Notes: generated by a model not told the origin, from the sequence alone. A DNA stretch of 64,000 nucleotides from Rhizaria sp. SCN 62-66 (GCA_001724265.1 MEDY01000009.1:62001-126000); one strand, 5' to 3'; counted from the first letter of the stretch, positions 6,201-40,871 are shown. Numbers and translations are program-made.

Positions 6201-9200
6201 CGCGGCTGCGGCGCGCGTGGCCAGGGCGGAGCGCATCGCGATGGCCGACTGGGCCGCGGCGGCGGCGCGGCCGTGGAGGCCGGTGTTCTGCAGCGCCGCG
6301 TGCGCGCGCACAAGCACCTTGCTCATGTCCCAGACCAGCGCGGCGCCCTCGCCGTCCACGGCGTCGGCGCGCGCGGCCGCGGCGGCCAGCGCGTCGGCGG
6401 GCGCGGTCGCGGGCAGCGCGCCAAAGGCCGCGGGCGCGGCAGCTGCGGCAGAGCCCGTGGTGGCGAGGTAGCGGCCCTCAGCGGTGAAGGCCAGCGACGC
6501 GGCGGCGCCAGTCAGCGCGGCGGCCACGGCGCGCGCGTTGGCGCGGCCGCTGGCGGGGAGCGCGGCGGGGAGCGCGGCGGACAGCGCGGCGCCGGCGGCG
6601 GGCGCGTGCGCCGAGAAGGCCATGAGGCAGCGCAGCGCGACGGTACGTGTGGGCCGCGAGTTAAGCGCGTAGCCGCCGCCCAGGTGCACGCCGTAGCACA
6701 GCGGCGCCAGTGCCTCCTGCTCGTGCGCCGCGCTGGCGGCCGCGGCGGCGGCGGACTGCAGCGAGCCGTCGGTGGTGAGCACGAACGAGTTGCGGCGGGG
6801 CGCTCTGGCCAGCGCGGCGGCCGTGATGCCTGCGGTGGCGTCCTCCCCGTCCTCGTCGCCGTCGTCATGGTCGCTCTCAGACGGCGGCGCGGTGCCCGCC
6901 TCCTCGGCGGCCGCGATCGCGGCGGCGCGGCGCTCGGCGACGGCGCGCACGCGGGCGGCCTTGTTTGCGGCGACCGCGGCGGCCTGGCGACGCGTGGCCA
7001 GCGCGCGCGCGGCGGTCATCATGAGCGGCGCCGACAACGCCGCCTGCTGCTGCTGCAGCTGCGCAGAGAGCTGCGCGGCGTCGCCCCCGGGCAGCGTGAC
7101 CGACACGTCGCCGCCGCCCAGAGCCGCGACGCCCGAGAGCGTGGCGGCCGTGAGCAGCGAGGCCGCGGCGGCCGAGGCCGAGGACGAGGAGCCGACAGCG
7201 CCGATGAGCCCCGGCGTCGTGGTCACGCCCGTCGCCGCGGCCGCGGTCGCCGTGGTGATGTTGTGCAGCGCCGTGCTCGCGCACGTCTCGGGGTCTGCGA
7301 TGTCCACGCCGCGGATCGCCAGGGGGCGCCCGCCGTCGGCGCTGGTCGGGGACCGCGGGCCGCCCGCAGACGACGCCGCGTTGGCGCCCGCGGCGGCCGC
7401 GGCCACGGGTCCGGGGTCGACGGCCGCGAGCGTGACGGTGCCGTCGGCCGCGGCGACGGCAAAGAGCGAGAGCCCGGGGAAGGCGTGCGAGAAGGGCGCG
7501 AAGGCGGCCGCGAGGGGCAGCGCGGGCATGGCGTCCGACTGCGCGGCGAGACACAGGCGGCCGTCGGGCAGCACCTGAACGGCGCGCAGCACGCGGTCTG
7601 CGCACAGCAGCAGCGCGAAGCTCAGCGCGGCGTCGGCACCTACGGGCACCGGGGCCGCGGGGCCCGCCGCCGTCGCCGGCGGTTGCAGCGGCGCGTGCAT
7701 GGCGGCGGCCGAGGGCAGCGTCGCGGCAATGTGGTGCGGCACGGCCTCGGCGGCGACGGCAGCGACGGGCAACACCGTCGCCACGGGCCGCAGCGCGGAG
7801 CGGCGCAGCGCCAGGTCGCGCGACGACGGGTGGTGGTACGCTGAAGGCGGGCGCGCGACGATGACGCGGCCCTTGGTCGTCAGGAACGCGATGCGCTCGA
7901 AGAACACGCCGCCGCCTACGGCCGCGGGCGCAGCGGCGGACGCGGCGGCGCCGTCAGACGCGGAGCCAGCTGCGGGCGCGGCGGCGGTGGCAAGGGGCGC
8001 GGAGGCGGGCAGCCAGCGCACGATGTGGACGCTCTCCTTGCGCATCGCGTCCGCGGCCACCTGCGCGGCCGCGGAGTAGCCCGCTGCAGTGACCGTGGGC
8101 GCGCCCGACACCACCACCAACCTCGCGCTGTCGCAGACACTCGCGGGCGCGCTCGCGGCGCCCGCGGGCTTGTCCGAGCCCAAGCGCGCGCCGCGGGCCG
8201 GGGCCGGCGCGGGGGGTGCGTCGGGGTCGGTGAGCAGCTCGTCGTGGTTGGCCACGGCGAGGACCTCGAGGTCGGCGGTGCGGATGAACACGGTGCAGTC
8301 GCGCGAGGAGACCGCGAAGACGTCGCCGTCGGTGTTGAACACAACGGACCGCACCAGCCCGGCCGCGTCCACGTCCGCGCCAGCGTCAGCGCCGCTGCCA
8401 CTGACAAGCACAGCATCAACGGCGGAGCCGGCGCCGGCGGAGGACTGGGGGTCGTCGCCGAGAGGAAACGCGTCGTCGTCGGCTGCGGCGGCCACGGCGG
8501 AGGCGGCGACCGCGGAGGCGGCGTCGGTGGCGGGCGTGTGCGCGGGGAAGAGGCGACGCGACCACACGAGGCGCATCGCGGTGGGCTCGGAGATGTCGAC
8601 GACGTTGACGCCGCCGTGCAGCGTGCCCACCACCAACAGCGAGCCGTCGGGGCACACGGCGGCCGCGGTGGCCGGCGCCGACGTGGGGTACACGCCCAGC
8701 AGCGCGCGCGGCGCCACGGCCCATACGGCCACGGGCGCGGTCAGCCCCCACGTCAGCACGCACGACGACGAGTCGCGCGCCGCGGCGCGGGCCAGCGCGC
8801 CCGACTGCGCGGCCCCCGCGGCGCCGTTCGCGCCGGCGCCCGTGCCGCCGGTGGCCGCGTTGAGCTCGTTGGTCGCGGCGGCCGCGGCGAAGGCGGCGGC
8901 GGTCGCGCGCGTGCGGCGGGCGCGCGCGAGCGCCTCTGCGGCCGCAGAGCCCGGCGCTGCAAAGGGCAGCGCGATGGTGTTGGTGCCGCGCGACCAGGGC
9001 GCCAGTGCAGAGGCCGCCAGCTGCGCCTGCTGCAGCTGCGTGTCGCCAGCGGTGCCGGGGGCCGCGACCGCGTTCGGCGGCATCAGAAAGGGCGTCTTGC
9101 TGTTGCTGCCGCTGCCAGTAGAGACAGTGGCGGCGGCAGAGGCGAGTGTGAGCGCGTACATGTGCTGCAGACCGGGCGCCGCGGCGAGCGGGAAGGTGCC

Positions 9201-12200
9201 GAGCGCGGTGACGTCGAAGATGGAGCCCAGCAGCAACGCCACAGCGGCGTTAAACAGGCGCTCCTCTTGCTCCGCAGTCGCCGCCAGCGCCACGGGGTCA
9301 ATGTCCTCGTCGTCGTCGCCGTCACCGTTGTCATCGTCGTCGTCGTCCTCGCCGTTGTTGTCGTCGAGCGAGCCGGCAATGACGCCGTCGCCCGCGGCGG
9401 CCGCGGCCTCGGCGGCGCGCCGCGCGCGGCGGCCCCCGCGCGCGTTGCGGCGCGCGATGGTGTGCAGGTCGAGCGAGGGCAGCGCGGCGCCGAGGCCCTG
9501 GAGGATGCGCACGGCGGCCGCGCCCGAGGGCGGCAGCGCGGCGATGGCGGCCGGGGAAAGCCCGGTGGACGCGGCTGCAGCGGCCTCGGCGGTCAGATGC
9601 GAGGCGCCCGAGTGGCGGCGCGCGGTGCTGCCCGCGCCCGCGGCGGCGCTGGCGGCCTCGGCTGCGGCCAGCGCGGCGGGGGCGGCGGCGAGCGCGGCCG
9701 TGGCGGCCGAGTTGGCGGCCGCGGCGGGATCCGGCGAGTTGAGAAAGCTCTTCCAGTACGCAAAAGCGTCCGCGACGACGCGGCGCGCGTGTGTCAGCAC
9801 GCGCGGCTGGCCGACAACTTGCACGCGCCGCAGCAGCCCACCCGCGGTGAGCACCACGTACGACGTGAAGTCTGGCGCGAACGCCAGCGACGCCACGGCC
9901 GAGCTGTTAGCGGCGGCGGGGAACGCGGAGGACGCAGACAGCGGCGCCGTCAGCGCGGCGGCCATCAGCGCGGCGGGGCTGCCGGGCGCCGCGGCGGGCG
10001 ACAGCACGGCGGCCGCGAGCGTGGCCAGCGCGGCAGTGGGGGGCGCGTAGAAAGGCGGCAGAACGCCGCCTGCGCCCGCGGGCAGCGTCGGGGGCGCGCC
10101 TGCGGTGCCTGGCGCGGCCTCAGCCTCGTCGTGCGTCGCCGTTGTGGCGGCGTTGGCGGCGGACTCAGCAGCGGCGGGCGAGGGCAGGCGGTGTCGGTAC
10201 ACGCAGAGCGCGCCCAGCGCGGCGGCCGCGGCGGCCGGGGCGGGCAGCACGCGGCCGGCGGCCCCGGGGCACGGCAGCGGCGGCGGCGAGGGCAGCGCGG
10301 CCACCCACGCCGCCGCGGCGTCGGCTGCCGACAGCGACGGCGCCAGCGGTCCGTCTCTTGTCGCGGCCGCGGTGACCGAGGCCGAGACAGCGGTGGTCGT
10401 CGTCGCCGTCGCAGACGCGGTCGCCGCAGCAGCGCCGTCAGTCGAGGGGCCGTAGGGCACGAGCGCGGTACTGTTGGCCGCAGCGGCCGCGGCAGCAGCA
10501 GCAGCAGCAGCAGCAGCGGCAGCGGCGGCGGCGTGCGAGGCCGCGAAGCCGGGCGGCGGTGCAAAGACCTGCGCCAGCGCGGCGAGCGAGACCCACACGG
10601 CCGTGTCGTTGTGCGTGCCGACGAGCAGGTGCGCACGGCACAGCGCCAGCGCGGGCGCGTGCGCCGCCAGGTGCGCCAGCGCGGCGGCGGGCGCGGCGCG
10701 GGCCAGAGCGGGCAACAGCGCGGCGGCGGGGGCGGCCGCACAACCGGCGGGGGCGCCGGCGGCGGCGGGCGCGGCGGCGAGGTCGAGCAGTGCGGCCAAG
10801 GGCGAGATGGGCTCGTCGGCGTCCGCGGGGTCCGCGTTGAGGCGGGCCAGCGCGCGGGCCGTGGCGGTGCGCGCGCGCCACAGCGCGGCGTCGCCGTCGA
10901 CGTCGGCGAGCGCCAGCACCGTCGGCACGGACAGCGCCACCAGCGCGCGCACCGCGCGGGCCGCCGCCGAGACGCGGCCGTCGCCGCTGCCGGCGTGCGC
11001 GCTTGATGAGTCCATCGCGGCGGTGGCGGCGGCGGCGGCGGGGGAGCCGGCGTGGAGCACATGGTTGATGACGCCGGCCTCGGCCTCGGTGAAGAGCACC
11101 GTCGACACGCTGTGTGCGGCGCCCGACGCCGCGGCCACGGTCGCGTTGCCCGAGCACGCGGCGCCGGAGACGAGCGCCGAGGCCTGCACGAACGGCAACT
11201 TGCGCGGCGCGTCAAACGCGTGCTGCTCGCCGTCGTCGGCCGCGCTGTTAGCGAGCGCGTTGCTGACCGGCGGCGCGAGCATGCCGGCCGTGGGACGCAG
11301 CGGCTCGGAGCCGCTGGCCAGCGCGAGCGGCGTCGCGCCCGCCGCGGGCGTCACGCGCGGGACCACCAGCGCGGGCGCGGCGACCGTGAGCACGGCGCCC
11401 AGCACCGTCGACAGCGCCACGGTCCCCGCCGCGATCCACGCGTGCGCCGCCACGGACCGCGCGGCGGCGGCGGCGACTGCGCCGGGCAGCGACGTCAGCG
11501 CGGACAGGTACGGCGTCGCTACGGCCAGCGCGTCCAGCTCCGCGGCGTCCAGCGCGGGGCTCGCGGCCAGCGCGGCGGCGGCGGCGGACGCCTGGCTGTC
11601 GCGGTGGCCGCGGCGGCTGCCGCCATGACGACCGCGGCTATGGCGATCGAAGCCGTCGTCGTCTCTGGGCGAGCCCAGGTCCGAGCCGGAGCCGCTGGCG
11701 CGGTACCGCGGGTTGTTCTCATCCGCGTCGTCGTCCGTCTCGCCGCCGCTGTGATCGCGCTCGCCCTGCTGCGGCGCGGCGGCCGCGGCCTCAGCGCGCG
11801 CGTGGCGCTGGACCGACGCGCGCACGGTCTCGGCGAAGACGTCAGCGGCGGCGGGGCCCGAGGTGCGCTGGCGTGCGAGCTGCTCCTCGGCGCCGGGCAG
11901 CGCGACGTCGACGGCCGTAAGCACAGGGTTGAAGGCGCCGCGCAAGAAGGGGCCCACGGACCAGAGCGTGGCGCGGCCGCACGCGGTGATCGTGAGCAGC
12001 TCGCCGCGGTTGAACGGGTTGAACGACACCACACACGCCGCGCGGGCCTGCGCGCGCGCCAGGGAGCCCAGGGCCGCCGTGCTGGCTTGCGCCGCGGCCG
12101 CTGCGGCGGCGTCGGCGGCGGTCGTGTCACCGCCCAGCGCGCTCATGGCGGCCGCCGCGGCCGCGGGGTCGTCCGACTCGGCCGCAGCGGCCGCAGCGTC

Positions 12201-13091
12201 GGCGACGGCAAGCCCCGCAGCGCGCGCGGTGGCGGCGGGCGCAGTCAGCGAGGCCGCGATGGCGTCGGCAAGCGCGCCATCGACGTTGGCAGCGGCAATG
12301 AGCTCGAAGCAGTCGGCGTTGAACTGGCCCTGCGCGACGGCGTAGGACGCGTAGGTGGGCGCGGCGGCGGACCGCAAGGAGGCTGGGAGCGTGGGGAGTA
12401 GCTCACCGGGCACAGGGGACGTCGGCGTCAGCGCGTAGAGATACAGCGCGGTGCGAGCGCCCGCGAGGAGTACCGCGAGCTGCGTGCCGTCGCGCGAAAC
12501 ATCGAGCCCGGCCACGCGTGCGCCCGCCGGAAGGGAGAACGAGGCGTGCAGCGCGCGGGAGGGGAAGCCATAGACGGTGATGGCGGCACCTGCGGGCGAG
12601 TGCGTCGCGCAGAAGACGCGCGACTCGTCGTGCAGAGTCGTGTTGCCACTGCCGCCGTCGCCTGTGTTCGCGTAGCCACGAGTGGCAGACTTGTTGCTGC
12701 TGTCGTAGCCGGGGCGGGCAGCGGGGTCGGCGGGGCCCGAGGGGTCGGCCTCGGCAAGGAGCGGGGAGACGCAGAAGGCGTCGAAGGTGGTGCCGAGTCC
12801 GAACGAGATGTGACGCTGCTCGCGAGTGGAGCACGACAGTAGCGCGAGGACGTTGCCGGCCTTGAAGCATAGCACGTCGTCGCTGAGGTACGAGACGCGC
12901 TTGTGAGAGATAGCAAGCGCCTCCTTGAGGACAACAAGCGAAGATCCGTCCGCGGGGTCGTCGAAGCCGCCCTGTGAGGCGTCGGCACCGCTGCCGCCCG
13001 CGGCCGAGGACGACGAGGGCGAGAAGGGGGTCGTGGGGCCCGAGAAGACGGGCGCGGCCGGCAGCGCAGCTACGCGCGGGTTCGAGCTCAT
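279..13091 (-). CDS. CFAP43: Cilia- and flagella-associated protein 43 (WDR96)-like, about 4270 aa, heavily expanded by Ala-rich inserts
   Basis: Uninterrupted ORF ending TAA (279-281); first ATG at 13091 (the track uses a non-ATG start at 13124). Blocks resembling CFAP43, in order: N-terminal RVSYLSDDVLCFKAGNVLALL; WD-like ATAAAVCPDGSLLVVGTLHGGVNVVDISEP and VRSVVFNTDGDVFAVSS; LERLPLAEFTVD; HRIKAQCVDGMEV; EVANFPLRR; LMHPLECLSPRQKRTQAVLL; KPEWM; coiled coil YEKKLRGVQDDREKRRKVLQTELAKL; C-terminal RQLVDLAKLQSREIAFLRTQLEALRRRTFAAL (cf. the CFAP43 end EVERLRMKTFPAL). Confidence 0.85.
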   Translation of the reverse strand: MSSNPRVAALPAAPVFSGPTTPFSPSSSSAAGGSGADASQGGFDDPADGSSLVVLKEALAISHKRVSYLSDDVLCFKAGNVLALLSCSTREQRHISFGLGTTFDAFCVSPLLAEADPSGPADPAARPGYDSSNKSATRGYANTGDGGSGNTTLHDESRVFCATHSPAGAAITVYGFPSRALHASFSLPAGARVAGLDVSRDGTQLAVLLAGARTALYLYALTPTSPVPGELLPTLPASLRSAAAPTYASYAVAQGQFNADCFELIAAANVDGALADAIAASLTAPAATARAAGLAVADAAAAAAESDDPAAAAAAMSALGGDTTAADAAAAAAAQASTAALGSLARAQARAACVVSFNPFNRGELLTITACGRATLWSVGPFLRGAFNPVLTAVDVALPGAEEQLARQRTSGPAAADVFAETVRASVQRHARAEAAAAAPQQGERDHSGGETDDDADENNPRYRASGSGSDLGSPRDDDGFDRHSRGRHGGSRRGHRDSQASAAAAALAASPALDAAELDALAVATPYLSALTSLPGAVAAAAARSVAAHAWIAAGTVALSTVLGAVLTVAAPALVVPRVTPAAGATPLALASGSEPLRPTAGMLAPPVSNALANSAADDGEQHAFDAPRKLPFVQASALVSGAACSGNATVAAASGAAHSVSTVLFTEAEAGVINHVLHAGSPAAAAATAAMDSSSAHAGSGDGRVSAAARAVRALVALSVPTVLALADVDGDAALWRARTATARALARLNADPADADEPISPLAALLDLAAAPAAAGAPAGCAAAPAAALLPALARAAPAAALAHLAAHAPALALCRAHLLVGTHNDTAVWVSLAALAQVFAPPPGFAASHAAAAAAAAAAAAAAAAAAANSTALVPYGPSTDGAAAATASATATTTTAVSASVTAAATRDGPLAPSLSAADAAAAWVAALPSPPPLPCPGAAGRVLPAPAAAAAALGALCVYRHRLPSPAAAESAANAATTATHDEAEAAPGTAGAPPTLPAGAGGVLPPFYAPPTAALATLAAAVLSPAAAPGSPAALMAAALTAPLSASSAFPAAANSSAVASLAFAPDFTSYVVLTAGGLLRRVQVVGQPRVLTHARRVVADAFAYWKSFLNSPDPAAAANSAATAALAAAPAALAAAEAASAAAGAGSTARRHSGASHLTAEAAAAASTGLSPAAIAALPPSGAAAVRILQGLGAALPSLDLHTIARRNARGGRRARRAAEAAAAAGDGVIAGSLDDNNGEDDDDDDNGDGDDDEDIDPVALAATAEQEERLFNAAVALLLGSIFDVTALGTFPLAAAPGLQHMYALTLASAAATVSTGSGSNSKTPFLMPPNAVAAPGTAGDTQLQQAQLAASALAPWSRGTNTIALPFAAPGSAAAEALARARRTRATAAAFAAAAATNELNAATGGTGAGANGAAGAAQSGALARAAARDSSSCVLTWGLTAPVAVWAVAPRALLGVYPTSAPATAAAVCPDGSLLVVGTLHGGVNVVDISEPTAMRLVWSRRLFPAHTPATDAASAVAASAVAAAADDDAFPLGDDPQSSAGAGSAVDAVLVSGSGADAGADVDAAGLVRSVVFNTDGDVFAVSSRDCTVFIRTADLEVLAVANHDELLTDPDAPPAPAPARGARLGSDKPAGAASAPASVCDSARLVVVSGAPTVTAAGYSAAAQVAADAMRKESVHIVRWLPASAPLATAAAPAAGSASDGAAASAAAPAAVGGGVFFERIAFLTTKGRVIVARPPSAYHHPSSRDLALRRSALRPVATVLPVAAVAAEAVPHHIAATLPSAAAMHAPLQPPATAAGPAAPVPVGADAALSFALLLCADRVLRAVQVLPDGRLCLAAQSDAMPALPLAAAFAPFSHAFPGLSLFAVAAADGTVTLAAVDPGPVAAAAAGANAASSAGGPRSPTSADGGRPLAIRGVDIADPETCASTALHNITTATAAAATGVTTTPGLIGAVGSSSSASAAAASLLTAATLSGVAALGGGDVSVTLPGGDAAQLSAQLQQQQAALSAPLMMTAARALATRRQAAAVAANKAARVRAVAERRAAAIAAAEEAGTAPPSESDHDDGDEDGEDATAGITAAALARAPRRNSFVLTTDGSLQSAAAAAASAAHEQEALAPLCYGVHLGGGYALNSRPTRTVALRCLMAFSAHAPAAGAALSAALPAALPASGRANARAVAAALTGAAASLAFTAEGRYLATTGSAAAAAPAAFGALPATAPADALAAAAARADAVDGEGAALVWDMSKVLVRAHAALQNTGLHGRAAAAAQSAIAMRSALATRAAAAVRTPASVRAQTLDVLATALSRHALCIPAPASRNSGSGSGSAAVGPVLPPGIAAAVWGSVSMAHAEVTLNSAVELVSAAPSEPAAPAPGSAAAAVAANAPAAAAPASAMPLVTLRTGPIGVSASAKELAAAAAAAAATAASISAHDDPEGAAAAQAAAVAAAAASAAAPAGGFQSSRRRASLGYGGVLAGLAEAADQDAALAALDRVNGANADDADGAAANGDGAASSAAAAAIARANAAAAAAAATAARDAVVSGLAKFRKAFMGLVARNERAGTLERLPLAEFTVDVALAAALRRRAAAAVVRVREAAERAIVARRMIAHRIKAQCVDGMEVMGKVVVSMTSLPAPAAPAPSFASPGGAPAAAAPVPAVEVANFPLRRVPADEQRRTAQVLHLRFMASMEQRWYCQAIAMQESSRGNGSASAGTVLTAAARARASAGAGAASAANGGGSHVATALWRPWTLTQRAQWVLNASPVTMPDPLQQCYDSRILRPDAEAAEEEDADGAAGGSGARKSAAGAKGAAAGKNAAKNARASAAATASTGDADGDGADGDEGAAAKTGRRADNDDDVSAGDRNGSSAASASGPMSGIPLPALMHPLECLSPRQKRTQAVLLRARMLGFQRAFNALVEQAAAQKKRDCEVVADKTRRVREAQAEVELLRLAQDHLAAHGHILPGAGDAAGATPAAAVPLFTPLQDEREDPLLVLTVPDAAIKAPKVLSAKERAAAAKQQAEEAARRAAAGDADDGADPQRGLQQMLRGGQLQSGVAGIVQSVVDVWVAELDKAKPEWMVDAEAAALAAAEGRDEAPAEPVPPPPSLPPHMAAAAAAAAAAAAAAEGVIVLNPDGTVDVSLLNEQQTIDYTAYEKKLRGVQDDREKRRKVLQTELAKLRSDVAAVVKRFTAHLTSLAKARVVFVKAVLEHELAVAGLARDAVRAEQLATETALVNARCGALQRERHTAQAALGHAAVLLQSGARALYSAVAAAADADRSMRRDLTSEATILVPAAAVPTMVDAGLKWVRQRRRPPVFTHALLYQSVLALGAVMVAHYPVPVAAAVPIDPATGAPYEDAASGASPDGDADGMMDGGVVASASTAAVNTTAGPLTAQVRALLSGASQSTATSAVQSDAPLTLPGARQPWASPAHALLYGAQSGPVAALHMASPSAAPVPLAAILAPFFTAAPAAAGAATFTRTPLSPLWHVLAAYGARAIASSHGGTGGAFASAAAAAAAGSSVNATRTGRAATALSGARTGSARGGPRSRAGGAGSAGAGVVAASLSPAMQWHPVSVLTAPLASAALPSLGSTNVAVALAAASAVTTGLAAAAASAPPGTAASGPAAAALAAAVTAAMSAPLPFLYPYPAAVVAVPGAAATAGAGLAAAGDALAWMTDAASADPDAAGATSSDSADDDLAAAAVAAAAAGAAAGTGPSEWRRTLARRRRAQWERELRCQRLADFLMELAHSYDALTLAVSEASEDAAVMQRARRRLARARLAAAVAPSPACVAAGLTVSGTVRSPLDCELTISLQNGSVELDAAGFGATTVAEEASSSALGALAVAVVPDRSDALLCPLKWVHALNAAVTVAGNEKVNRMRQRAEGKVANAASARDLVRLELERADAADLTAELHLLRVTKSLQAAVRAASAKGEPGAEGGDAEAFFRAETEEADAHAQSAAQAATQAQLERQVDFARLTAGGRLRVRQDTLAQLAAAAGQRQRENARLISTVKLLAAAVAERAHVATLRSGSGPRPASRAAPRPMSRGSRPGTATALQGADGGMPNIVALAMDVEGDLGLEPAAAESLEAVLAAVAAGTVNAPPGAGTTAAAAAAVTDVIGDHASSGQGRKMKEVTMRRQLVDLAKLQSREIAFLRTQLEALRRRTFAALPPLPGSELPAFSPPSTAAGFASSIGGVGGAQSPQALGLARMDLRSRGGPSLSGSFAPQSRPSTTGGVNGSGAVPSSLPDIRPTRASTTTGVKF
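10476..10532 (-). repeat. Trinucleotide tract encoding a 19-Ala run in CFAP43
   Basis: (GCA/GCG)n on the + strand; protein reads SH(A)19NS. Confidence 0.9.
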
Positions 13092-14122
13092 CTGCGAGTG
13101 TGAATCAGGTCTTGCGTTTAGCAAGGAAACGTCGCGCGCGAACTAGAACGGCCGATGGGTTGAATAACTTTAATCCGTGAACGAGTTTGTGAGAAGTGCA
13201 ACGACTGGTCAGTAGGTTAACGGACAGAAGTACAAAGGTCGGTGAGCAATACGTGCGAGAAAGTAAGCATACGCGCAATCTTAAGATACAACAATACACA
13301 ATCACGACTTAAGGCGTGCCAAACTCTTTAAACATGAGATACTGACTACAGGCAGGTCTTGCAAGTGATGCGTTAGCGTTCATCTTGGTCGACCGAGAAG
13401 CACACACGAAAGTAGAGTGTTCATCGGGATAGATCCGTCTAGTAAAAGAGCGACAAGTATGGTAGTAGTGTCCAATCACTATTTGCCATATGTTTTAATT
13501 ATGTGCCTATACAACACTGCCACGGGTCACTGTGCGTACGTTTGTGTCCAAACCGTTTTTCATTTTTTTCAAACCTGCAAGACGAGTCGTTGGACAATTT
13601 TCACGAACAGGCTGTCTCGACATCGTCTCAGCCGCGGTCACAAAACCATGTAAAGGACTGTATTACGGCAGATTCTTACATGGTAAAGTTGCAATTTGAA
13701 GAGATTATAGAAATTTAGCTCATACTTATTGGGAGCTGGACTATTCTCCTGTTAACGGACTATGTACTCCGATTGAGTCTGCTTTTAAGGACACTCCGGA
13801 GCCATCTTTGGGGTCTTCTTGGCCCGTCACCCCGGTTCAACTTTAAACGTATCATGCTTTGTCCACATTCCCTCAATGATTTTATATTTTGCTGGGCCGT
13901 TTTTATTGTTAAGTATTTCAACGAAAACACTTGCTTAAAACCTCTCTGGTCCTTTCTGAATATTCGTATTGGCTAGTTTTGCGAGCTTAAGTAGGATCAC
14001 CTTCCGCCCTCCACGCCGCCGCCAACGAGGTCACCCCGGTCCCCCGCGCGGCCTCACACGCACCGGACCTTTTTCGTCCGCGCCCGCACCGCGCCTCTTG
14101 CGCTTTGCGCCCCGCGTAGCCC
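13092..14122. promoter_or_regulatory. AT-rich divergent (head-to-head) spacer, CFAP43/ThrE-like; probable bidirectional promoter and 5' UTRs
   Basis: Sharp GC drop between two outward-pointing start codons; no credible ORF. Confidence 0.55.
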
Positions 14123-17100
14123 ATGTCTTCTCTCGGCAAGCGCGCCGGCGACTCAGCCGACGCCGCCGTGCCCCCGTCTTCGTCCCCGGCGAGCACTGGT
14201 GGCGCCGCGAACCTGCCGCCGCCAGTGGTCGTCGTGAACCGCGCGTCGTCGTCCTCGGACGCCGCAGACCCCGATGCGAGAATGTACAACCTTCCGCCGA
14301 CGCCGCAATTCCCCCAAATTCCCGAGGCGCCCTCGGCCGTCACCGCCCACGCGCCGGGCGCCACAGCAACAACAAACGCGACTGCTGCAACTGCGTCGCC
14401 CTACTTCGTGCCGCTGCTTCCTTCCCAGCAGCAGCAGCCGCTGCCGCTGCCCGCGACAACGATGCCTACTATACCCACGGTCACGTCTCAGTTCCCCGCT
14501 GGCATCAACACAACGCCCTCGTTCGCTTTCAACACCGCCCTGTTCCCCAACTCCACCACTGGCGTCGTCAACACGGCGGCGCCCACGTCCGGCTCGGTGC
14601 AGTTCCCCAACAGCGTCGTCTTCCCCGCGGGCTCGGTCGCCCCGCCTGCGTCCCTGGTTTCTAGCGCCACCGCCGCCGTCCCCACCACTGCCGCAATGGC
14701 AACGGGCGGCATGGCCACTTCGGGCGGCTTCAGCAGCTTCTCGCCGCCGCAGCAGAGCGTGCTAGGCTCGGTCACCGGCCTTAACAACAACAACGTGAAC
14801 ATGAATATGATCATGCTCGGCTCGACTGTGGGTGCAAACCCGTTCGGCTCCGTTGTCAGCGCTGCCGTTGACTCCAGCATGGGCTCAACGGGCCACATGG
14901 GCCACAACGCGTTCTCAAACCTGCCGACTCTGCCTCAGCCGAATGCAATGCAATTCTCCCATCAGCCGCAGTCCACGCTGCCGCTATCCATGACCATGCA
15001 GCCCCTACAACAGCCCCTCCAGCAGCCTCTGCAGCAGCAGCACTTTGCGCCGATGCACCACCACCACCCGCTGCTGCACACGGCGTACCAGGTCTCGCCC
15101 TCGGCGGCGGCGCCCTTCTACGCTGTGGACCCCGTGGCTGTGGCCGCCGCCACGGAGGCCGTCAACGCCTTCGCGGCCTCGGCGCTCGCGGCGGCCCAGG
15201 CGCCCGACGCCGACACCGCGAACACTGCCACGGCCACCTCGCAGCAGCAGCAGCAGCAGCAGGTCGAGGAGTACGGCAGCGACAACGCCGAGACCGAGTA
15301 CTCGGCGACGGCGTACGTGCAGCAGGCCGAGGCCGAGGCCGCGGCGGCGCGGAAGCTCCGCGACGAGCGCATCACACGTCAGAAGAAGCTCCTCATCGTC
15401 GGGCTGCTCAAGGCGCTGGCGCGCTACGGCTGCACGACCCACCGCATCGAGTTCTTGGTGCACCGCGTGGCCAAGGCGCTAGGTGTGCGCTGCAACGCGA
15501 TGGTGCTGCCGAACATGCTCATGATTACCTTCGGCTCGAAGCTCATGGACCCTTCGGAGTCGCACTCGCTGGTGCTGGCCATGGGCGGCGGGCTCGACTG
15601 CTACAAGCTGCACGAGACCGAGACGCTGGCCCTGGCCATCGCCGAGCTGGCCAACCCCAAGCGCCGCCTGGCGCTCGCCGCCGCCGCCGTGGCCGCCGCC
15701 GCTGACGCGGACGGTGCCGACACCGGGGCCGACGCAGGCTGCGCAGACAGCGGCGACGCGGCGGCCGCAAACCGGCTTGCGGAGGCCCCGCTCTTGGGCG
15801 CAACGCGGCGCTCCCGCGCGGCGGGCGGCATCGGCGCGACGCTGCGCGGAGCCGTGGGGATGACGGCGCGGCGGCGGCAGGTGCCCGCACTAGGCACGGC
15901 CTCGCTCGGCGACAGCGTCCGCGACACCAGTCCACGCTCTGCCAACAACAATAATAATACCAACGGCAATATCAACGTGGCTAATCCGGCGACGGTGGTG
16001 GTCAGCGGCCGGCGCGGCAGCGGCAGCGTTTCCCGGTCCCAGTCCCAGTCGCGCTAGCAGTCTCAAAGACACAACGGCCCCGCGTCTGTTGGCCTCCGCG
16101 GCCTCACTGCGCGCGGCAACGGCGCCGGCGCCGGCGCCGGCAGAAGCGCCAACGCGGCGTCCGCGCACGCGCAGACTATGCTTTCGCACCGGGAGACGCG
16201 CAGCAGCGACGGCGAGGATGACGACGTCGACCCCGAGGCGCCGCGCGCGCGCCCGCGCCTCGCAAGCAACGGCGGCGGCGGCGGCAACTGCACCACCAGC
16301 AAGGGCGCGTCCGCCCGTCGCGGCGGCGCTGCGAGCGCGGGCGCGGGCGCGGGCGCGATGGGCTCCGGCTCGGGCCTGGCGCGGCCGCCGCGGGGCGCGG
16401 TGATTGACCCGCCGGAGCCACAGGAGGAGGACACGGACGAGTCGGACGGCGGCGACGGCGTCTTCGGCGCCGCGCGCAGGCAGGTGCCGCAGCGCACAGG
16501 CTACTTCCCGCCGCCGATCAACACGCTCGACGACGTGGCCATGTCGCCGCACGTCCCGCTCAAGGGCGCGGCCGGCTACGCTGGGGGGCCGCAGCCGCTC
16601 AGCGCAGTGGGGCTGCAGGGCAGCGCCAGCTTCGCCGGCAGCCCCCGCCTCGGCGCCGGCTTCTATCACGCACCCGGGACCGCTCCCAACAAAATTGCTG
16701 CGAACGGTGCACCGTCTGCGCCGTCTGTGGTGCGCTCCATCGGCAATAACAATAATAGCATCACTTCCGTGAACGCGGCGCCCGTGACTCCCGTCTCTGT
16801 CGTCGGCAAGCCCAGCAAAAACAGCAGTCAGGGCAGCAGCACCAGCGCTGTGGCCAACAACAACGACATTAACAACAACAACAACAACGGTAGCGGTAAC
16901 GGAAGCGGTATCGCGCCGCCGCCCGGGTCGAACAGCACGAGTCACCGCTGCGCGAACCGCCGGGCCGCTGCGGCCAACGCCGCCGCTGCCGTCGCCGCCG
17001 CGAGTGGCATGAACAGCGGCGGTGGCGCCCCGCTGCCACCGCCGCCGATGCCGCTGCCGCCCAGCGGCGACTCCGCAGCCCCCAGCGCGGCCGCCAGCTC

Positions 17101-18221
17101 CCATCCCAGCAGCGTCCAGGACTCCCCCGCCGCGGTCGCGCAGCCCGCGCCCGAGTCGGCCGCCGTGCAACCCGCGCAGCCGCACGGCGACGCAGTTGTC
17201 TCGGTGACCTCCGGCGGCGGCGCGGCGGCCACGCGGCCGGCCTCGCAGTCGATCCCGCGCGCGGGCGCCGCGGTGCCGCCGATCATCCCCGACAACGTAT
17301 CGGTGCCAGGCACCACGGGTGCCATGCCGCTCGTGCACCAGCAGTACGCACAGCAGCAACAGCAGCAGCAGCAGCTGGCGCTCGCGGGCCCGTCGTTCTC
17401 GCAGCTGAGCTCGGTGGCGATGCCGGTGACGAGCAGCTCGCTCATGTCCCAGTCGGCGCTGCCGCTGTCCACCCTCGCGGGCGTCCCCGTCTCCGTCACC
17501 GGCGCCGCCCCCCCTGCTGGCTCTGCTGCCGCTCCCAGCGCTGCCGCTCCCAGCATTGCCGCTGCCGGCGCGGCGCTGCCCCCGCTCGACACCACCTCGG
17601 TCGCGGCACGCGTTCGGCAGGCTGCGCGCGAGGTGGCCCGCGAGAAGCGCCGCAAGCGGATCCTGCACATGCAGCGCGTGCAGCAGCATCTTCAGCAGCA
17701 GCAGCAGCAGCAGCGCCAGGCGGCCGCTGCGAGCGCCGCTGCCGCCGCTGCGGCCGCCGCGTCTGCGGTCGGCGGGTCCGATAGCGACTACTCGTTCAGC
17801 GGCACCGACACGGACGATGACGACGAGTTCATGCGGCCGCCCGGCTACCTTGGCGGCGGGTCAGCCGGCACGGGCGGCTTCCGCGCGATGCCGCTGCTTA
17901 ACGCGCGCAAGGCCGTGGTGGCGCGGTCCACGGCCGTGAGCTCTCACGTCGGCAATATCGCCGACAAAGACAAAGAGAAGGACAAGGACAAGGTCAAGGA
18001 CAGCAAGGTGACGAGCACACCCACGCTCACCGCTGCCCCGGCGCCCGGCTCTGGCTCTCTGGGCCCCGCGCAGCCCGCCGCCGACGCCACCATCGCTGGC
18101 ACGGGCCTCACCGCAGGCCAGATCGCACTGGGCGCCGTGGCGAACGCGATCGCGCCAGACACGTTGCCGCAGTACATCGCAGCGCTGATCTCGTCCCAGC
18201 AGCAGCAGCAGCAGCTCCAGC

Positions 18222-18257
<36 letters not shown>

Positions 18258-21200
18258 CGGCGGCCGCGGCGGCGCTTGGGGCGGCCGGCCTGCCCCCTGG
18301 CGCGGTGGGGATCACTCTGCCGCTGGGCATGCCTGTTGGGACTGCGCCACACCCCGTCGACGTCCGCCAAGCGCGCGAGCTGTCGCTGCTGGCCCAGTCC
18401 AACGCTGTGCTGGGCGCGCTCACCGGACAGCCCCCGCTGTCGGCCGCGCTGCCCGGCTTCGCGCCCGCTCCCATCGCCCCTGTCGCGGTAGGGACGGCGA
18501 CTGCGCAGCTTATTGCGAGCCCGCATCAGGCGCCGCGCCTGCCACAGCCGCTGTCGCCCGCGCTGGTGCCGTCGATGCTCTCGACACAAGGCTCCGCTGC
18601 AACGGGCGCGACGTCGCTGGCCGCCTCCGAGAGCGCGCTCGCGGGCTCCGCGTCGAGCATGGGCGCCGCGCTGGCCGCGGAGCAGGTGTCCGCAGTCGAC
18701 GTCGCCGCCGCCGCTGCCGCTGCGTCGTCACCGTCGTCGAAGCCTGGCTCTGCGTCCGTGTCGCCATCGGTGGCGCCCGCCGCCGCCGCGGGGCCTTCAT
18801 CATTGTCTCCCCAGCTCATCGCCACCGTCCCCGCGGTCGCGACCAGCACTAGCCCTAGCGGTTTCGTGTCCACCACGGCCTACGCCGGGCTCCCCGCGTT
18901 GCAGCCTGCCGTCTCGGTGCCCATGACCGCGCCCGGGAGCGCCCCGACGACTGCGGCGGCGCCCGTATTTGTGCCGACCGCGGTGACCGTAGGCGGCGTG
19001 CCCTGTGTGCTCATCCCCACCGCGAGCGCACTGACGACGGCCGCGGCGCCGGGCTTGGTCTCGCCCGTCGCGCTTCCACCCCCCGCCGCGGGCTCGGTGG
19101 CCACCGGCCCCGTGGCCACCGGCCCGGTGGCCGGCGGCCCAGTGGCCGGCGGTGCGACCGACGTGGCCGCGATGGCCGCGTCCGCCGCCGTGGAGGCCGC
19201 CAAGGACGGCGCGGCGGGCGAGGACAACTCGGACGCTGACGACCGTGCCAACGCCGCCGAGCTGGCCTCGGCGCTCGCGCTGCCCGGCGCAGCCGAGTCG
19301 GCGGTGGGAGGCGGTCGGTACGAGTATGATTACGACTACGACTCGGACAACGGCGACGCCGACGAGCAGACCGGCACAGGCGCTGGCTACGGTGACGCAG
19401 AGGGGGGATACTATGACGACGAGGACGAGGACGACGGCGAAGACGAGTCGTACCTCCCGGTCTATGTGTACGACTCCGAGGGCCACATCGTGACGGTGGA
19501 CGAGGAATCCGGCAACGTCATGGTCGTCGACCCCTTCGATCAGCCCCTCGGCGACGGCCTCACACCCGAGTCGCTGGGCACCGTCGTCGCTGTCATCCCC
19601 GCGCAGGTCTACATCCGTGCGAACCTGCCGATGCTCACCGCCGCCGCCGAGGCCGCACTGCACGCGGAGGTGGCCGCCGAGAAGACGCGCGCCGCCGCGC
19701 AGGACGCCGCCAACGCCGCCGCCGCCGCCGCCGCGGCCCTGGCGGGCGCCGGGGACGAGGCCGCGGACTGGGACGCCGTCGAGGGCTCCCCTGAACACGC
19801 ACTCGTGGTTGAGGCCAACGCACAGGCTGAGCAGGCTGAGGCCGACGCCGTGGCCGCCGAGGGCGTGCTGGCGATGGCGCGCGCGTACCAGTCGCTGCTG
19901 CAGAAGCTGCTGGTGGCGGCAGCGCGCCAGAACGCGCTGCACGTCGACGCCAGCTGGTTTGACGGCATGCCCGCCGAGGTGGCCGAGTACTACGGCGTCA
20001 CCGCCGACAAGGTTGCCGCCGCGGCGCAAGCAGCCGGCGCCACGAGTGCAGGCGACGATGGCTACGAGGCCGGCGCCGCCGAGGCCGGCGGGCGCGTGCA
20101 GCGCCATCTAGCGATGGTAGCCTATGGCGCGGGCGGTGGCGACGACGACAACGGCGGCGGCGGCGGTCTGGGCGGCAAAGCCGCGCAGGCATCGGGCATG
20201 GACGACGACCCGATGCCCAAGAGCGGCTGGGACATCTTCTTCTCATGTCGGCGCCCGAGGTACGACCACTTCCACCCAGACAAGCCGTACGACATGCGCG
20301 TGGCGCTGCACCGCATCATCAGCGCACCCTCGCTGTACCCGCCCTGGCTGCAGGCCGTCATGATCGTCGTGTGCTCGACCGCGTGCGCGACGCTTTTCTT
20401 CGGCGGCGGTCTCAACGAGACCTACGTCGCCTTCGTCGGCTCCGTCATCTCGGCGCTGTTTCAGTACTTGTCATGCTACTACTCGGCCGTCGACAAGCTG
20501 CTTAACTTCCTCTGCCCCATGCTCGTCGCCTTCGTCACGGCCGTGTTCCGCATGTACGTCTTCCCCGATCTCTGCCCCACGCCGACCTCGCTGGCGGCGA
20601 TCATTTGGTTCCTGCCCGGCTGGTCCATCACCACGGCCGTCATTGAACTGGGCGCACGCAGCATGATCTCCGGCACCGTGCGCTTCATGAACGCCATCTT
20701 CACCACGCTCCAGATGGGCTTCGGGCTCGCGCTGGGTGCTGAGCTGGCCTCGTGGAAGTCGATGCCGCCAGTGCCCTCGCCGTGTACCTCGGGCGTCAGC
20801 GACGTGTGGCAGGCGCTCACGTTTCCCATGATGTCGGTTGCGTTCAACGTGCTGCTGGGCGGGCATCCGCGCCAATGGCTGGGTATGAGCTCCACCGCGA
20901 TGGTCGCCATGTTCGGGTCCAACTGGCTCTCCAAGGTTATCCCGGGCGACCTCATCACCATGGTCACGGCTTTCCTCGTCGGCGTCTGGGGCGGCCTGCT
21001 GTCCATCGTGTTCAACGAGCAGCCCATCGTCTTCTTCCTTGCTGGCACGCTCATGCTCGTGCCCGGTTCCATCGGCGTGCGCGGCGCCGCCGCCATCTTC
21101 AACAACAAGTCGTTCGAGATGTTCGACTTCTTCACGACGCTGCTGCGCACCACGATCTCCATCTGCGTCGGGCTGCTCGTGGCCAACTTCCTCGTCCCAC

Positions 21201-24200
21201 CGCGCAAGTCCTACCACGTCTCGCTCGCGCGCGCGCTGTGGAGCGCGTGCCGCTGCAGCGGCGACTCGGCGCGCCGCCGCCGCCTTAAGGCCGAGCCGCA
21301 GCAGGCCGCCGAGGCCTGGTCGGACATCCTGCGTAGGCTCAAGGAGCGCCAGGAGACGCTGGAGAAGAAGACCGAGGAGGTCAACGCCGCTGCGGCCGCC
21401 GCGGCCGTCGCCAAGAGTTCCGCACTGACCGACAACGGCGGCGCAGTGAGAATGCAGTCTGCCGCGCGCCCAGCGCCCGGCGCCGCCGCGGGGGAGGACT
21501 CTGTCTCGCGCCGCGGCGCCGACACGGTGTCGCGCCGCAGCAAGTCGTCGATGTCGCGCGTGTCGCAGACGCAGCGCGCGCCGGGGCCCGTGCACAGCGC
21601 CACTCTCGCGCGCGCGATGCCGGCCTCCAACGCCGCGCAGGCCGCCGCGATCGCCGCCGCCAACGCCAGTGCGGCGGACAGCAAGGGCGGCGACAAGCAG
21701 ATCTCGTTCTCGCTGACGTCGATGCGCGCCGGCGCGGACATGGGCTCCTCGGCTGGCCAGTCGGACGCCGAGTACTGGGGCGTGTCGGCCACGGGCTCCG
21801 CGTCGGCCTCCGCCGCGGGGTCCCCGGCGCAGACGCAGCCGCCGCTCGACGCCTACGCCATCGCGGCCGCTAATGCCGCCAACGCCGCCGCTGCGACCGT
21901 GGCTGTGTCCGGCGAGCTCAAGCCCGCACAGCTGCAGCAGCAGCAGTCAACGACGGACTCCGCCAGCACTGGTGCCGGCGCTGGCGCTGCTGGGGCCGCT
22001 GGCAGCGTCAGAGGCCTGCCGCCGCTGCCTGCGCCGGCTCTGTCGACCGCGCCGTCGTGGACCGACGCTCGATATCAGCACCAGGTGCTGACGCACCCCT
22101 GGACTGTCCACCAGCAGCAACAACAGCAGCAGATGTACCCCGGCCTCTTCAACGCGCAGCTGCCGCAGCAGCCGCAGCAGCAGCAGTTCTTGATTCCCTA
22201 TCAGCCGCAGCCGCCGACGTACACCGCGCCCTTTGTCCCCGCGCCGTCCATCGTGTCGGGTCCCGTCGTCGCCACCGGCGGCTGCCCCACGGTCGCCGCG
22301 GGCGGCTGCCCCGCCAGCGTCGCCGGCGCCAGCGCGGCCAGCGCGGCCAGCGCGGCAGGCTGCCCTGCAAGCGCGGCGCCGACCGCGGCCGCGCCCACCG
22401 CCCTGAGCCTGCAGGAGCAGCTGCAGAGCCAGATTACTGCGATCCAGTCGCAGCTCGTGGCCTCGCAGGCGGCGTTCGCGGCCACGTCGTCGACTCTCGC
22501 GCTGCCTATGTCGCCCTCCCTGGTGCCCATGTCGCCGCCCATCGCGCCGCTGCCACTGCCCCTGCCCGTTCCCGGCGCATCGACAGCCCCGGGAGCGGCC
22601 GGCCTGCCCGGTTCTGCGGGCATCATGGGCGCGACCGGTCCCATGCAGTCGGTGCCCGCGCTCGCCGGCGGCGGACTCGCAGGCAGCCCCTCGTTCGCCG
22701 GCGTCGGCGTCGGTGTCATCGCTGGCGGCGTGCCGGCCGCGTCTCTGGCGCCCGCGCCGGCGCCCGTGGTGCTACCCGCGAGCGCGCCCGTCACGTCGCC
22801 CGCCAGAGTCCCTGCCAACCCCGCCGGCGTCGCAGTCAACACTGGCGGCGCGGTCTCGGCTATCCCCGCGCTCTCTCCGGCGCACTCGTCGCTGTCCTCC
22901 GTGCCCGCCGGCGGCGGCTCTGCCGCCGTGACCGCCGCAGCGACCGTGGCCGCCGCGACGGCGAATGCGGACCTAGAGCGCCGCCTGCAGCAGCAGCAGG
23001 ACCTCACGTCGCGCCTCTCCGACGCCGTCGACACGCTTAAGGCCGAGCTGGCCGCGCTCAGGGCCGCGCCGCCCGTGCTCCGTCCCTCCGCCGCCGCCGC
23101 TGCTGCTGCCGCCGCCGCCGCAGCTGCGGGTGCGGGTGCGAACGCAGGAATGTCCAAGTTGCCCCGCCACAACAGCTACGGCGCTGGCATCTCCTCTTTA
23201 GCTCCTGGCGGCAGTGGCAACGCGCTGCCCTCGCAGCTGCAGCAGCAGATCCACCTGCACAGTGCCGCCGCACCGGGCCCGGCCGTGTCGCCCAGTCCGC
23301 AGCCTTACACCGCTGGTGCTGGGTCTGGCGCAGCAGGCAGCCGGACGCCGCACGTGACGCCGCCGGCGACGCCCGGGCTGCTGGTCATCCCGCCCGCGCA
23401 GGGCCCCGTCATATCGTCCCCGATCGGCTCCGTGCCAGGCGCCTTCGCCGGCGCGGGCGCCAGAGGCATGCCGGGCGCGTTCGTAGCGCCGCGCCAGTAC
23501 AACACCTTCATGGCAGGCCCCTCGCGGCCGGGGCGCATCGGCGGCGCGGGCGGCGCGACGGGCGGCGCTGCCGCGTTGCGCGCGCTCTTCAACAACCCAG
23601 CCCCACGCCCGTCGCCGCCGCCGGCCACCGTCTCCCCGGGCACAGGCGCGGGCAACGGCGGGCAGCGCCGCGGCAGCCAGCTGCTGTCGCCGGGCGCGAT
23701 GATGTCCGCCGCCGCCGCGAGTCCGCACGGCAGCACGCGGGCCAGCCCGGAGCCCGTCGGGCCGGGCGCGGGCGCGAGCGCGGGCGCCGCCGCGGCGATG
23801 CCGGCCGTCCCGCCGCAGCTGTGGCTGCAGCAGGAGCTGCGCCGCCACCGTCAGCTGACTGCGCAGCGCGAGCAGCAGCGCTCGCGCGGCCTCGCCGGCG
23901 CGGGCGCGACTCCTCTAGCCTCTGGAGGCGTGCCGGGCGCCCTCGCCCCGCTGGCGGCCACGACCAAGATCGGCAGCGCCAGCACGAACGCGATCGCTGC
24001 GACCGCGGCGGCCAACGCGGCGGGCAGCGGCGAGGTGACGCCCATCACCCCGCTCACGGTCACCAGCTCCGGCAGCGGCCTCGGGCACGCGCGCCACAGC
24101 CTCTCCGGCGCCGGCGCCGGGCTGGGCCACAGCTACAGCGCGGGCAACGCCGCCGTCATCGCCGCGGGCGCCACTGCGGGAGCGCCCAGTGTGCTGGTCA

Positions 24201-25621
24201 CGCCACGCGGGTCGCCTCACGGCACGGCGCGGTCGCTCTCGCGCGCGGGCTCGCTGCAGCGCGTGCCTAGCGACATCCCCTTCTTCGGCGCCGCGGCCGC
24301 GCAGCTCATGGTGGGTCCCAACGGCGCCGTCACCGGGCCTTCGGTCTCACCGCCCGCACAGGGGCTGGGGCTCGGCATCGACCGCGGGCTCACACCGCGG
24401 CCGCGCCCCGCGTCGCGGTCCTCGTCCTTTGCCAACCTGCACCACGCCGCCAGCGCCGACGACGTCGCGGCCCCCACCGCCACTGCCGGCGGCGGCGGCT
24501 CCAGAGTCATCGCCGCCGCGGCGACTGGCACCGAGGACGGCGGGGACAGCCCCGTTTCGCCCACACCCGCCGCGAAGCCGACCGTGCTGCTCGCCGGCTC
24601 CGCGGTCCCGCAGCCGCAGGCCCGCGTGTCGCCGTCCCCCGGCGCTAGCGGCGGCGGCGGCGGCATGAAGCGCTCGCAGTCGACGGGTAAGATCCCGGGC
24701 GCGGGCGACGTGCCCTCAATCGTTGTCTCGGGCGCCACCGGCGGCATCGTGACCCCGCAGCCGCACGCGGGCGGCGCAGCGGCGCAGGACCGGCCGCGCA
24801 CGCCGCGGACCGCGCTGTCGGGCACCGGCACGCCGATCCTGACCGCGCAGCACCACGCGGGGCTGTCGCTTTCGCGCCCGCCGTCGGTCAACGCGGTGTC
24901 AGCGCTCGGCGCGCCTGCCGCGGGCCGCATGCGACCGGCGCCGAGCGCGGCGTCGCTGCTGCTGCCGCCCACGACCTCGGCCGCGACGCTCGCCGCGCTC
25001 GCCGAGTCCACCGCGCACGCCTACGCCACGCTCTCCGCCGCTGCCGCTGCGGCGGCGATGAAGCACATCACGTCCTCGCGCCAGCAGCAGCAGCGCAACG
25101 GCGGCGGCGACGGCGGCGGCGAGCGCGCCGGAGTGCAGCCGCTGCTGCCGGGCCACCGACGCGGGCCCGCCGCTGCCGAGAGCGCGGCCGGCGACGCGCT
25201 GGCCAGTCTGTTCGTCCCGCCCTCGGCCACCGGCGCCGGGGCCGTGGGCTCTTCGGGTGCGGGCGCCAAGTCCGGCCGCTGGTCCCCGGCCCCTGGCGGC
25301 GCGGCGGGCGACTTGACCGTCGGCGACCGCAAGCGGGGCGTGAGTGGGCACGGCGCCACGCTTGAGCACCATCTCAGCTCGGTCAACGAGGAGCTCCCAG
25401 GCGAGGACGAGGACGGCGCCGCGCGACTCACCGGCCGCAGCGGCCACTATGGCGGCGGCGGCCACGGCGGCCCGCCCAATGGCCCCCGCGGCGGCCGCGG
25501 CGGCGCGCGGGGCGGCCGGGGTGGCGTGGCGGGCGGCCGCGTGCGCGCCGACAGCGTCGAGTTCCCCGCGCTGGACATGGACGACGACGTCACCATGCCC
25601 GGCACCGACGCTGCTGTCTAA
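14123..25621 (+). CDS. ThrE/PRM10 (DUF1212) family threonine/serine exporter-like membrane protein, about 3830 codons with one in-frame TAG at 16055-16057
   Basis: ORFs 14123-16057 and 16178-25621 are in the same frame, separated only by one TAG plus 40 open codons. The N-terminal part of the ThrE domain (LLKALARYGCTTHRIEFLVHRVAKALGVRCNAMVLPNMLMITFG...GLDCYKL, about 15380-15650) is in ORF1. Its continuation and roughly 10 hydrophobic segments (ALHRIISAPSLYPPW...FFGGG...IIWFLPGWSITTAVIELGARSMISGTVRF...LMLVPGSIGVRG, about 20290-21210) are in ORF2. Ends TAA. Confidence 0.8.
18197..18256 (+). repeat. (CAG)n poly-Gln tract
   Basis: CAG run with two CTC interruptions; other poly-Q runs occur near 15240, 17350, 17695 and 22110. 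Confidence 0.9.
19097..19153 (+). repeat. 15-nt coding tandem repeat, about 4 copies (VATGP/VAGGP)
   Basis: gtggccaccggcccc gtggccaccggcccg gtggccggcggccca gtggccggcggt. Confidence 0.85.
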
Positions 25622-40668: not shown

Positions 40669-40871
40669 CTGAGCTGGGTCAGCGGGAGGCGAGCTAGTGA
40701 GAGCTGTGGACGAGTGACCTACGGAGTAAGGCATGCGGGGAAGAGACAAAAATGAGGTTATAAATAAGAATTTAGAACTAGTTTTAAAATACACGGGGCA
40801 TTTCGGGCATGTGTGTTATTTCTCATTAGACGGATGTATAGCAGAGTTATGGATTGTTTTTCGCGACGCAC
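40669..40871 (-). other. Candidate 5' UTR intron of the PPR-like gene (203 nt)
   Basis: Consensus donor GTGCGT at 40871, branch-like GCTGAC, and acceptor CTCAG directly abutting ATG 40668. Confidence 0.45.

Follow-up and report, generated by a model that had tools for sequence, protein, structure and literature searches.

We propose that the organism from which this DNA derives probably uses a variant nuclear genetic code, in which genes end at UAA and UGA, and UAG, rarely used, mainly encodes glutamate. That UAG is a sense codon of some kind is very likely. Visible directly in the DNA are the distribution of TAG triplets, a gene for a tRNA with anticodon CUA, and differences at T32, G57 and T58 of the release factor eRF1. 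The window, the whole 64,000-nucleotide stretch that was analysed (G000:C9:62001-126000), belongs to a eukaryotic assembly of 34.9 Mb in 714 contigs, and the organism recurs in bioreactor and wastewater sequencing runs. Within the window, a single TAG lies in the frame of a very long gene of the ThrE family, with the following features.

14123..25621, + strand: gene of the ThrE family (threonine/serine exporters) with 3,832 codons and no intron; contains a single in-frame TAG and long inserts of low complexity
15410..15643, + strand: N-terminal part of the ThrE domain (profile positions 8-83), without a membrane segment
15881..16057, + strand: candidate intron of the initial annotation, rejected here, coding-like
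16055..16057, + strand: in-frame TAG in a Ser/Gln/Arg linker, a sense codon (most likely Glu)
20294..21187, + strand: membrane part of the ThrE domain (profile positions 92-240) and ThrE_2, with five hydrophobic segments
25619..25621, + strand: TAA that actually ends the gene; AT-rich non-coding DNA follows

The initial annotation, made from the sequence of this window, had described a TAG at 16055-16057 in a frame open for 644 codons before it and about 3190 after it, and our counts agree: from ATG at 14123 there are 644 codons 5' of the TAG and 3187 codons 3' of it, before the TAA at 25619-25621. GC content is 0.71-0.73 on both sides of the TAG, matching the earlier statement that it does not change there. 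The two halves of one ThrE domain said to flank the TAG were recovered with Pfam (PF06738, 120 bits against a cut-off of 26.3), with profile positions 8-83 matching residues 430-507 before the TAG, positions 92-240 matching residues 2058-2208 after it, and a weak ThrE_2 match downstream of the latter. About 1,550 low-complexity residues separate the soluble and membrane parts of the domain, and about 1,450 more lie behind it. Both halves stand in one chain only if the TAG is read through, and transport is the predicted function of that chain. All five of the hydrophobic segments found in the product lie C-terminal to the TAG, so termination at the TAG would yield no transporter; the functional short soluble isoform that had been suggested found no support. 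The membrane part differs from that of a sister lineage (runs X4/X5) mostly at third codon positions (21 of the 24 listed differences), indicating that the part of the gene 3' of the TAG is, judged by this pattern, under purifying selection. At 20300-21400, X4/X5 contain both a near-identical strain and this sister lineage, which is about 86-90% identical in the ThrE domain. Contigs of the RNA run X5 cover other parts of the gene, and none of the pieces listed for X5 or for run X8 spans the TAG at 16055; the small-share runs X7-X11 were excluded as evidence.

The TAG at 16055 is the sole in-frame TAG in about 19,000 codons of the window's long ORFs, as had been observed for its giant ORFs, and the other five long ORFs end in TAA (four) or TGA (one). 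Several of the window's genes are large. Low-complexity inserts expand the CFAP43 gene (279-13142, - strand) to about 4,270 codons, and three giant ORFs of 2,450-3,530 codons, at 31123-40815 (-), 45724-53085 (+) and 53410-63999 (-), have no Pfam match at E 0.01. A signal peptide peptidase gene was identified with Pfam at 28610-30400 (+). From labels assigned by eye, we take 27004-27810 (-) to encode an Arp2/3 WD40 subunit, 43682-44596 (-) a nitrilase-family protein, and 42392-42871 (+) a ribosomal L38-like protein.

We sampled about 1 Mb (roughly 3%) of the 35-Mb genome, and scored the sampled loci with a model that separates coding from non-coding DNA and had been trained on long ORFs of the same genome. 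The 158,122 codons that were confidently coding included 19 TAG, no TAA and no TGA, together with 7,232 GAG, 862 GAA, 5,611 CAG and 568 CAA. TAG is therefore about 400 times rarer than GAG, at approximately 0.2% of glutamate codons, which bears out the earlier argument, from its rarity, against fully synonymous reassignment. Because about 7 of the 19 were fetched for their TAG, the unbiased rate is nearer 1 in 13,000. Internal TAA, absent from this count, appeared as one weak call in a separate analysis of gene ends. A control showed that, with the codon usage of this genome, TAG would result from about 70% of nonsense changes occurring at random; the 19:0:0 ratio is thus weak by itself (P ~0.001-0.002), and the approximately 12 sites that were not sought for a TAG give 12:0:0, with P ~0.015-0.02. 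The location of the TAGs in conserved genes is the stronger point.

In-frame TAGs occur in the genes for eRF1, DDX46/Prp5 (upstream of the helicase core), SUV3, mitochondrial L28 and several kinases, as well as in the ThrE gene. The mitochondrial L28 of a relative (P0227, 68% identical) is collinear past the TAG site. Nine kinase matches contained TAG as their only stop triplet, of which five were internal and four were intron acceptors, and one further internal kinase TAG was found elsewhere. The TAGs of eRF1, L28, SUV3 and the kinases align without a gap, and therefore cannot be acceptors. The 39,456 aligned codons of the dyneins contained seven TAGs, all acceptor-like and none truly internal; kinesins likewise showed no internal TAG, the one TAG among 54 matches being an acceptor. 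The inspected matches containing TAA or TGA (C147, C89 and C118) were intronic; inspection left aside the TAA/TGA matches on C520, C178, C6:20127, C68 and C66, and a TAG match on C132. Two public protein records, P0226 (mitochondrial L28) and P0228 (DDX46), stop exactly at the in-frame TAG, indicating that proteins of this organism have been mis-called under the standard code.

The initial annotation had named terminal stop usage, a tRNA-CUA and changes in eRF1 as points to check for recoding. UAG is nearly absent from gene ends: 122 gene-end calls, a class that may include a few intronic stops, comprised 71 TAA, 48 TGA and 3 TAG, and with a TAG share of 0.21 in non-coding DNA, the probability of three or fewer TAGs among 122 is 2e-9. 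None of the three is a clear terminator on inspection. One is the internal TAG of DDX46, another looks like the antisense shadow of a gene on the opposite strand, and the remaining one, which is followed by seven codons and then TAA (L136, G000:C86, ~1012, - strand), is the only candidate for a genuine UAG terminator.

A pattern search, which is blind to tRNA-CUA genes containing introns, returned 19 candidates, one of which is a tRNA with anticodon CUA (G000:C84:76008-76080, - strand; L038 1489-1561; Rfam score 58 bits). It is followed by a run of T, and a Vps39 gene lies nearby, which places it in nuclear DNA. Over its 73 nucleotides it is identical to the organism's own tRNA-Glu(CTC) at 47 positions, to its tRNA-Glu(TTC) at 40, to its own tRNA-Gln sequences at 33 and 29, and to E. 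coli tRNA-Glu at 51. The first five acceptor pairs are those of both own tRNA-Glu types and have little in common with own tRNA-Gln; G73 is common to Glu(TTC), and most of the 3' half to Glu(CTC). By sequence comparison, then, this tRNA is of the glutamate type in both acceptor stem and D-arm, and its short variable arm counts against leucine. At least 120 prokaryotic stretches contain a 20-nt D-arm identical to its own, and 114 of the 115 D-arm-identical prokaryotic tRNAs seen in full have a Glu anticodon; among the organism's own tRNAs seen, the tRNA-CUA is the only one with C at position 9. No CUA-anticodon tRNA with the same D-arm was found in prokaryotic or viral contigs. The comparison with prokaryotic tRNAs suggests, as a lead, that a bacterial contribution is possible, through a chimeric or transferred origin, with an acceptor end that is eukaryote-like. 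The program ARAGORN labelled this gene as tRNA-Pyl. The body of tRNA-Pyl differs from the canonical cloverleaf. We rejected the label, as the gene fits the general tRNA model end to end, has canonical D and T loops, and is closest to tRNA-Glu. No tRNA with anticodon UUA was present among the tRNAs seen (63 of 506 candidates scored in one listing).

The only eRF1 gene found (G000:C63, L033 1125-1815 / L094, - strand) itself carries an in-frame TAG and is collinear with human eRF1; the copy-number check was made for eRF1 only. It contains the substitutions T32S, G57S, T58K and L126M, and L69 is unchanged. In the spliced gene, GSS stands in place of the GTS present in 114 of 114 homologues, and SK in place of the GT that precedes ASNIKS in 108 of 109. 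Its nearest relative (P0005, 85%) also has T58K, keeps T32, and has valine at the TAG column. T32 contacts the third-position G of the stop codon (PMC5304391, PMC5681627), and the change T32A reduces release at UAA and UAG alike (PMC3384315), so the effect of T32S is not predictable from published data.

Several lines of evidence make glutamate the likely meaning of UAG. The eRF1 column that holds TAG is E in 106, D in 10 and V in 1 of 117 homologues, and a kinase TAG lies at a hinge column with E in 30, D in 3 and N in 1 (34 of 104 kinases used). Among the organism's own kinases, aligned by eye at the hinge, 15 of 18 have E and none has Q, and the closest own paralogue has E. Against glutamate, KSR2 has serine at the hinge and RAF kinases have glutamine. 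The SUV3 column has E 16 and Q 3 among 57 bacterial homologues (57 of 80 loci used), and D in human. Summed over eight columns, Glu scores best, with Gln 10.7-13.7 bits and Lys 7.7-11.1 bits lower; with eRF1 and the hinge removed, the remaining six columns are roughly balanced. Scoring six sites with Pfam gave E 422.3, Q 419.2, K 417.4, D 417.0, Y 408.3 and L 407.4. Glu thus leads Gln by 3.1 bits and Tyr and Leu by 14-15, which tells against the UAG=Leu codes that the initial annotation had also raised (Leu 14.9 bits below Glu). This scoring is uninformative for SUV3 and for L28, where the site lies outside the profile. It is the eRF1 and hinge columns, together with the tRNA, that carry the glutamate call.

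The initial annotation had favoured glutamine, from the SQ-repeat context of the window's TAG, and a number of sites do lean this way. The CAMK kinase site is Q in an 81%-identical orthologue, in a column with Q 15, K 10 and E 3 of 41; NEK1 and DDX5 have Q at the positions aligned to TAG; the DDX46 column has Q 14 and E 8 of 124 (124 of 149 matches used); the two TAGs in the repeat of a ubiquitin-S74 fusion gene (L180) align to Q; and at least four TAG sites, the window's included, lie in Gln-rich runs. Codes in which UAG means Gln and UAA remains a stop are also known, in Iotanema, Hartmannula and Trochilia (PMC5304391, PMC11687900). UAG might be read genome-wide as Gln, or as a Glu/Gln mixture, if the Glu-bodied tRNA were partly charged by GlnRS or if a near-cognate tRNA-Gln shared the codon. 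We regard this as a minority possibility, as the acceptor pairs of the tRNA-CUA match own tRNA-Glu and little of own tRNA-Gln, and the eRF1 (106 of 117) and hinge (30 of 34) columns are glutamate. CAG is one transition from TAG and is expected to supply 22-53% of new TAGs by mutation, whatever TAG means, so glutamine contexts at variable sites would weigh less than glutamate at near-invariant ones. Furthermore, between Gln codons there is 1 TAG against 336 CAG and 48 CAA.

Other explanations keep the standard code. Readthrough of a few programmed or leaky stops by near-cognate tRNAs would yield short soluble and long membrane isoforms, and the TAG in the window is followed by CAGTCT, which, as had been described, matches the leaky-stop context CARYYA at five of six positions. 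The base after TAG is C in 9 of 19 cases, where the frequency over all codons would predict a share of 0.26 (P = 0.03), but the excess is small compared with 0.30 after GAG and 0.38 after CAG, so no special 3' context is needed, and at the other sites, eRF1 included, the next base is A, G or T. In the loci sampled, TAG is missing from gene ends and is not in use as an ordinary terminator, and a cognate tRNA-CUA exists; truncation would also cost catalytic or essential parts of eRF1, DDX46 and SUV3. We consider this readthrough very improbable, and the recoding raised in the initial annotation is supported in the form of a genome-wide code change served by a cognate tRNA, rather than of a leaky stop specific to one gene.

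Nonsense alleles, pseudogenes or assembly errors are an equally improbable source of the TAGs. Their rarity, the 70% share of TAG among random nonsense changes, and the occurrence of some TAGs in degenerate repeats (L180) or divergent kinases would all fit such an origin. However, this would account neither for the lack of TAG at gene ends nor for the tRNA, a TAG lies in the only eRF1 found, and purifying selection acts on the gene behind the TAG in the window. As to the sequencing error that the initial annotation had allowed for at 16055, a contig of run X3 covers 15720-16635 without a differing letter, and the listed pieces of the X3 contigs, which total about 5.8 kb and include the TAG, show none either. 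X3 is a run other than the possible source X1, and may duplicate X2 of the same study (455 versus 456 M letters), so this bridge excludes a simple assembly error more than it provides independent support. Least probable of all, to the point of being scarcely credible, is that a 177-nt phase-0 intron at 15881-16057 uses the TAG in the window as its acceptor. The length and phase fit, and TAG is a common acceptor in this genome (acceptor-like TAGs at the edges of matches number at least 7 in dyneins and 7 in kinases or helicases), but the interval scores +14.3 per 100 nt as coding, has a GC content of 0.65 and no T-rich tract, whereas four of four real introns score -13.6 to -38.9, with GC 0.37-0.52. 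No such splice joint occurs among the joints listed.

If UAG is a sense codon read mainly as glutamate, the tRNA-CUA would be transcribed, charged with Glu, and able to outcompete an eRF1 weakened at UAG, and the ThrE gene would give one full-length transporter of 3,832 residues. Decoding of UAG would be poor, with one tRNA gene found and the release factor probably still competing. A poorly decoded codon would be selected against, and the copies that survive would mostly have arisen recently, by a single-base change from CAG, GAG or another neighbouring codon; this would account for both its rarity and its Gln-rich contexts. More tentatively, and with considerable doubt, we suggest that this is an early code change in a free-living eukaryote, in which UAG has been removed from gene ends and is caught by a single tRNA-Glu(CUA) with a bacterial-type D-arm, termination by eRF1 at UAG persists in part, and the UAG within the eRF1 reading frame acts as a feedback switch like that of bacterial RF2, such that more eRF1 would lead to more truncation of eRF1. 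Feedback control through this UAG, drawn by analogy, is speculative; at the observed rate, the chance of a TAG in a gene the size of eRF1 is about 3%, and the nearest relative has Val at that site.

The organism is likely a member of the Rhizaria, a placement drawn from the sequence of one kinase gene, for which the best named match is Plasmodiophora brassicae (57%), and oomycetes reach 43-45%. The genome also contains axonemal genes, including CFAP43 and dyneins. A feature described for Rhizaria is an insertion at the junctions of polyubiquitin monomers (PMC12930898, PMC13746701). The ubiquitin loci of this genome (L178-L192) are unusually divergent, and several genes start with two extra residues, with no monomer junction assembled; one of these loci, L180, is the ubiquitin-peptidase S74 fusion, with a degenerate repeat and two in-frame TAGs. 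DNA of a relative was found in metagenome contigs as one 1.6-kb piece only, which ends in TAA.

This is probably an undescribed nuclear genetic code, and a real genome-wide change from stop to sense in an unusually early or weak state. A code with UAG as Glu and UAA as a stop was not found in our literature search, which covered mostly open-access main texts, and the recent Rhizaria literature looked at does not mention UAG; UAG=Glu with UAA and UGA as stops would thus be a nuclear code new to the literature searched, and the second, independent uncoupling of UAG from UAA in what are probably Rhizaria. The same search found no in-frame UAG in a cellular eRF1 gene in the texts covered, and no bacterial-derived suppressor tRNA in a eukaryote. 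The state of the code may be more useful than its novelty, with the stop codon gone from gene ends and a cognate tRNA present, yet a usage of about 0.2% of glutamate codons in a GC-rich genome. Tools for codon inference would probably miss a codon this rare.

Peritrich ciliates (NCBI table 30) read UAR as Glu; there, as in Blastocrithidia, UAG is glutamate, as it probably is here, and UAA is glutamate as well, whereas no internal TAA was found in our codon count. For Blastocrithidia, UAR=Glu is reported in PMC12153298. The ciliate Oligohymenophorea sp. PL0344 reads UAG as Glu and UAA as Lys, and resembles the present case in using a tRNA-CUA most similar to tRNA-Glu; as described, it has UGA as sole stop and ten tRNA-CUA genes, in contrast to UAA as the main stop and one tRNA-CUA found here (PMC10553269). 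Stop triplets in the release factor's own frame, which could give feedback control, are known from the RF genes of Mimivirus and Megavirus and from bacterial RF2, and such mechanisms are stated in that account to be absent from eukaryotic and archaeal homologues (PMC3521657). Here the gene is a cellular eRF1, and an in-frame UAG with a cognate tRNA would operate without a frameshift; if the proposed feedback is real, it would be the first such switch in a cellular eukaryotic eRF1 gene, as far as our literature search shows.

The closest counterparts are nuclear codes in which UAG alone is reassigned, and UAA and UGA end genes. These are described for the rhizarian exLh, probably of the same supergroup as our organism, with UAG=Leu, for Iotanema spirale, with UAG=Gln (PMC5304391), and for phyllopharyngean ciliates, with UAG as Leu or Gln (PMC11687900). 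A tRNA with anticodon CUA is reported from two of the ciliate MAGs (PMC11687900), and eRF1 is changed at T32 in Iotanema as it is here, although to T32G there and T32S here (PMC5304391). Relative to these codes as described, ours has UAG most likely as Glu, not Leu or Gln, a GC-rich genome, and an unchanged L69 in eRF1. It also differs in extent of use, with 19 UAG in 158,122 codons compared with 384 in 71 genes in exLh and 78-91% of genes in the ciliates (PMC5304391, PMC11687900). Theories of reassignment, by codon capture or through an ambiguous intermediate, predict a stage of this kind, whereas the known cases are fully established and mostly in AT-rich genomes.
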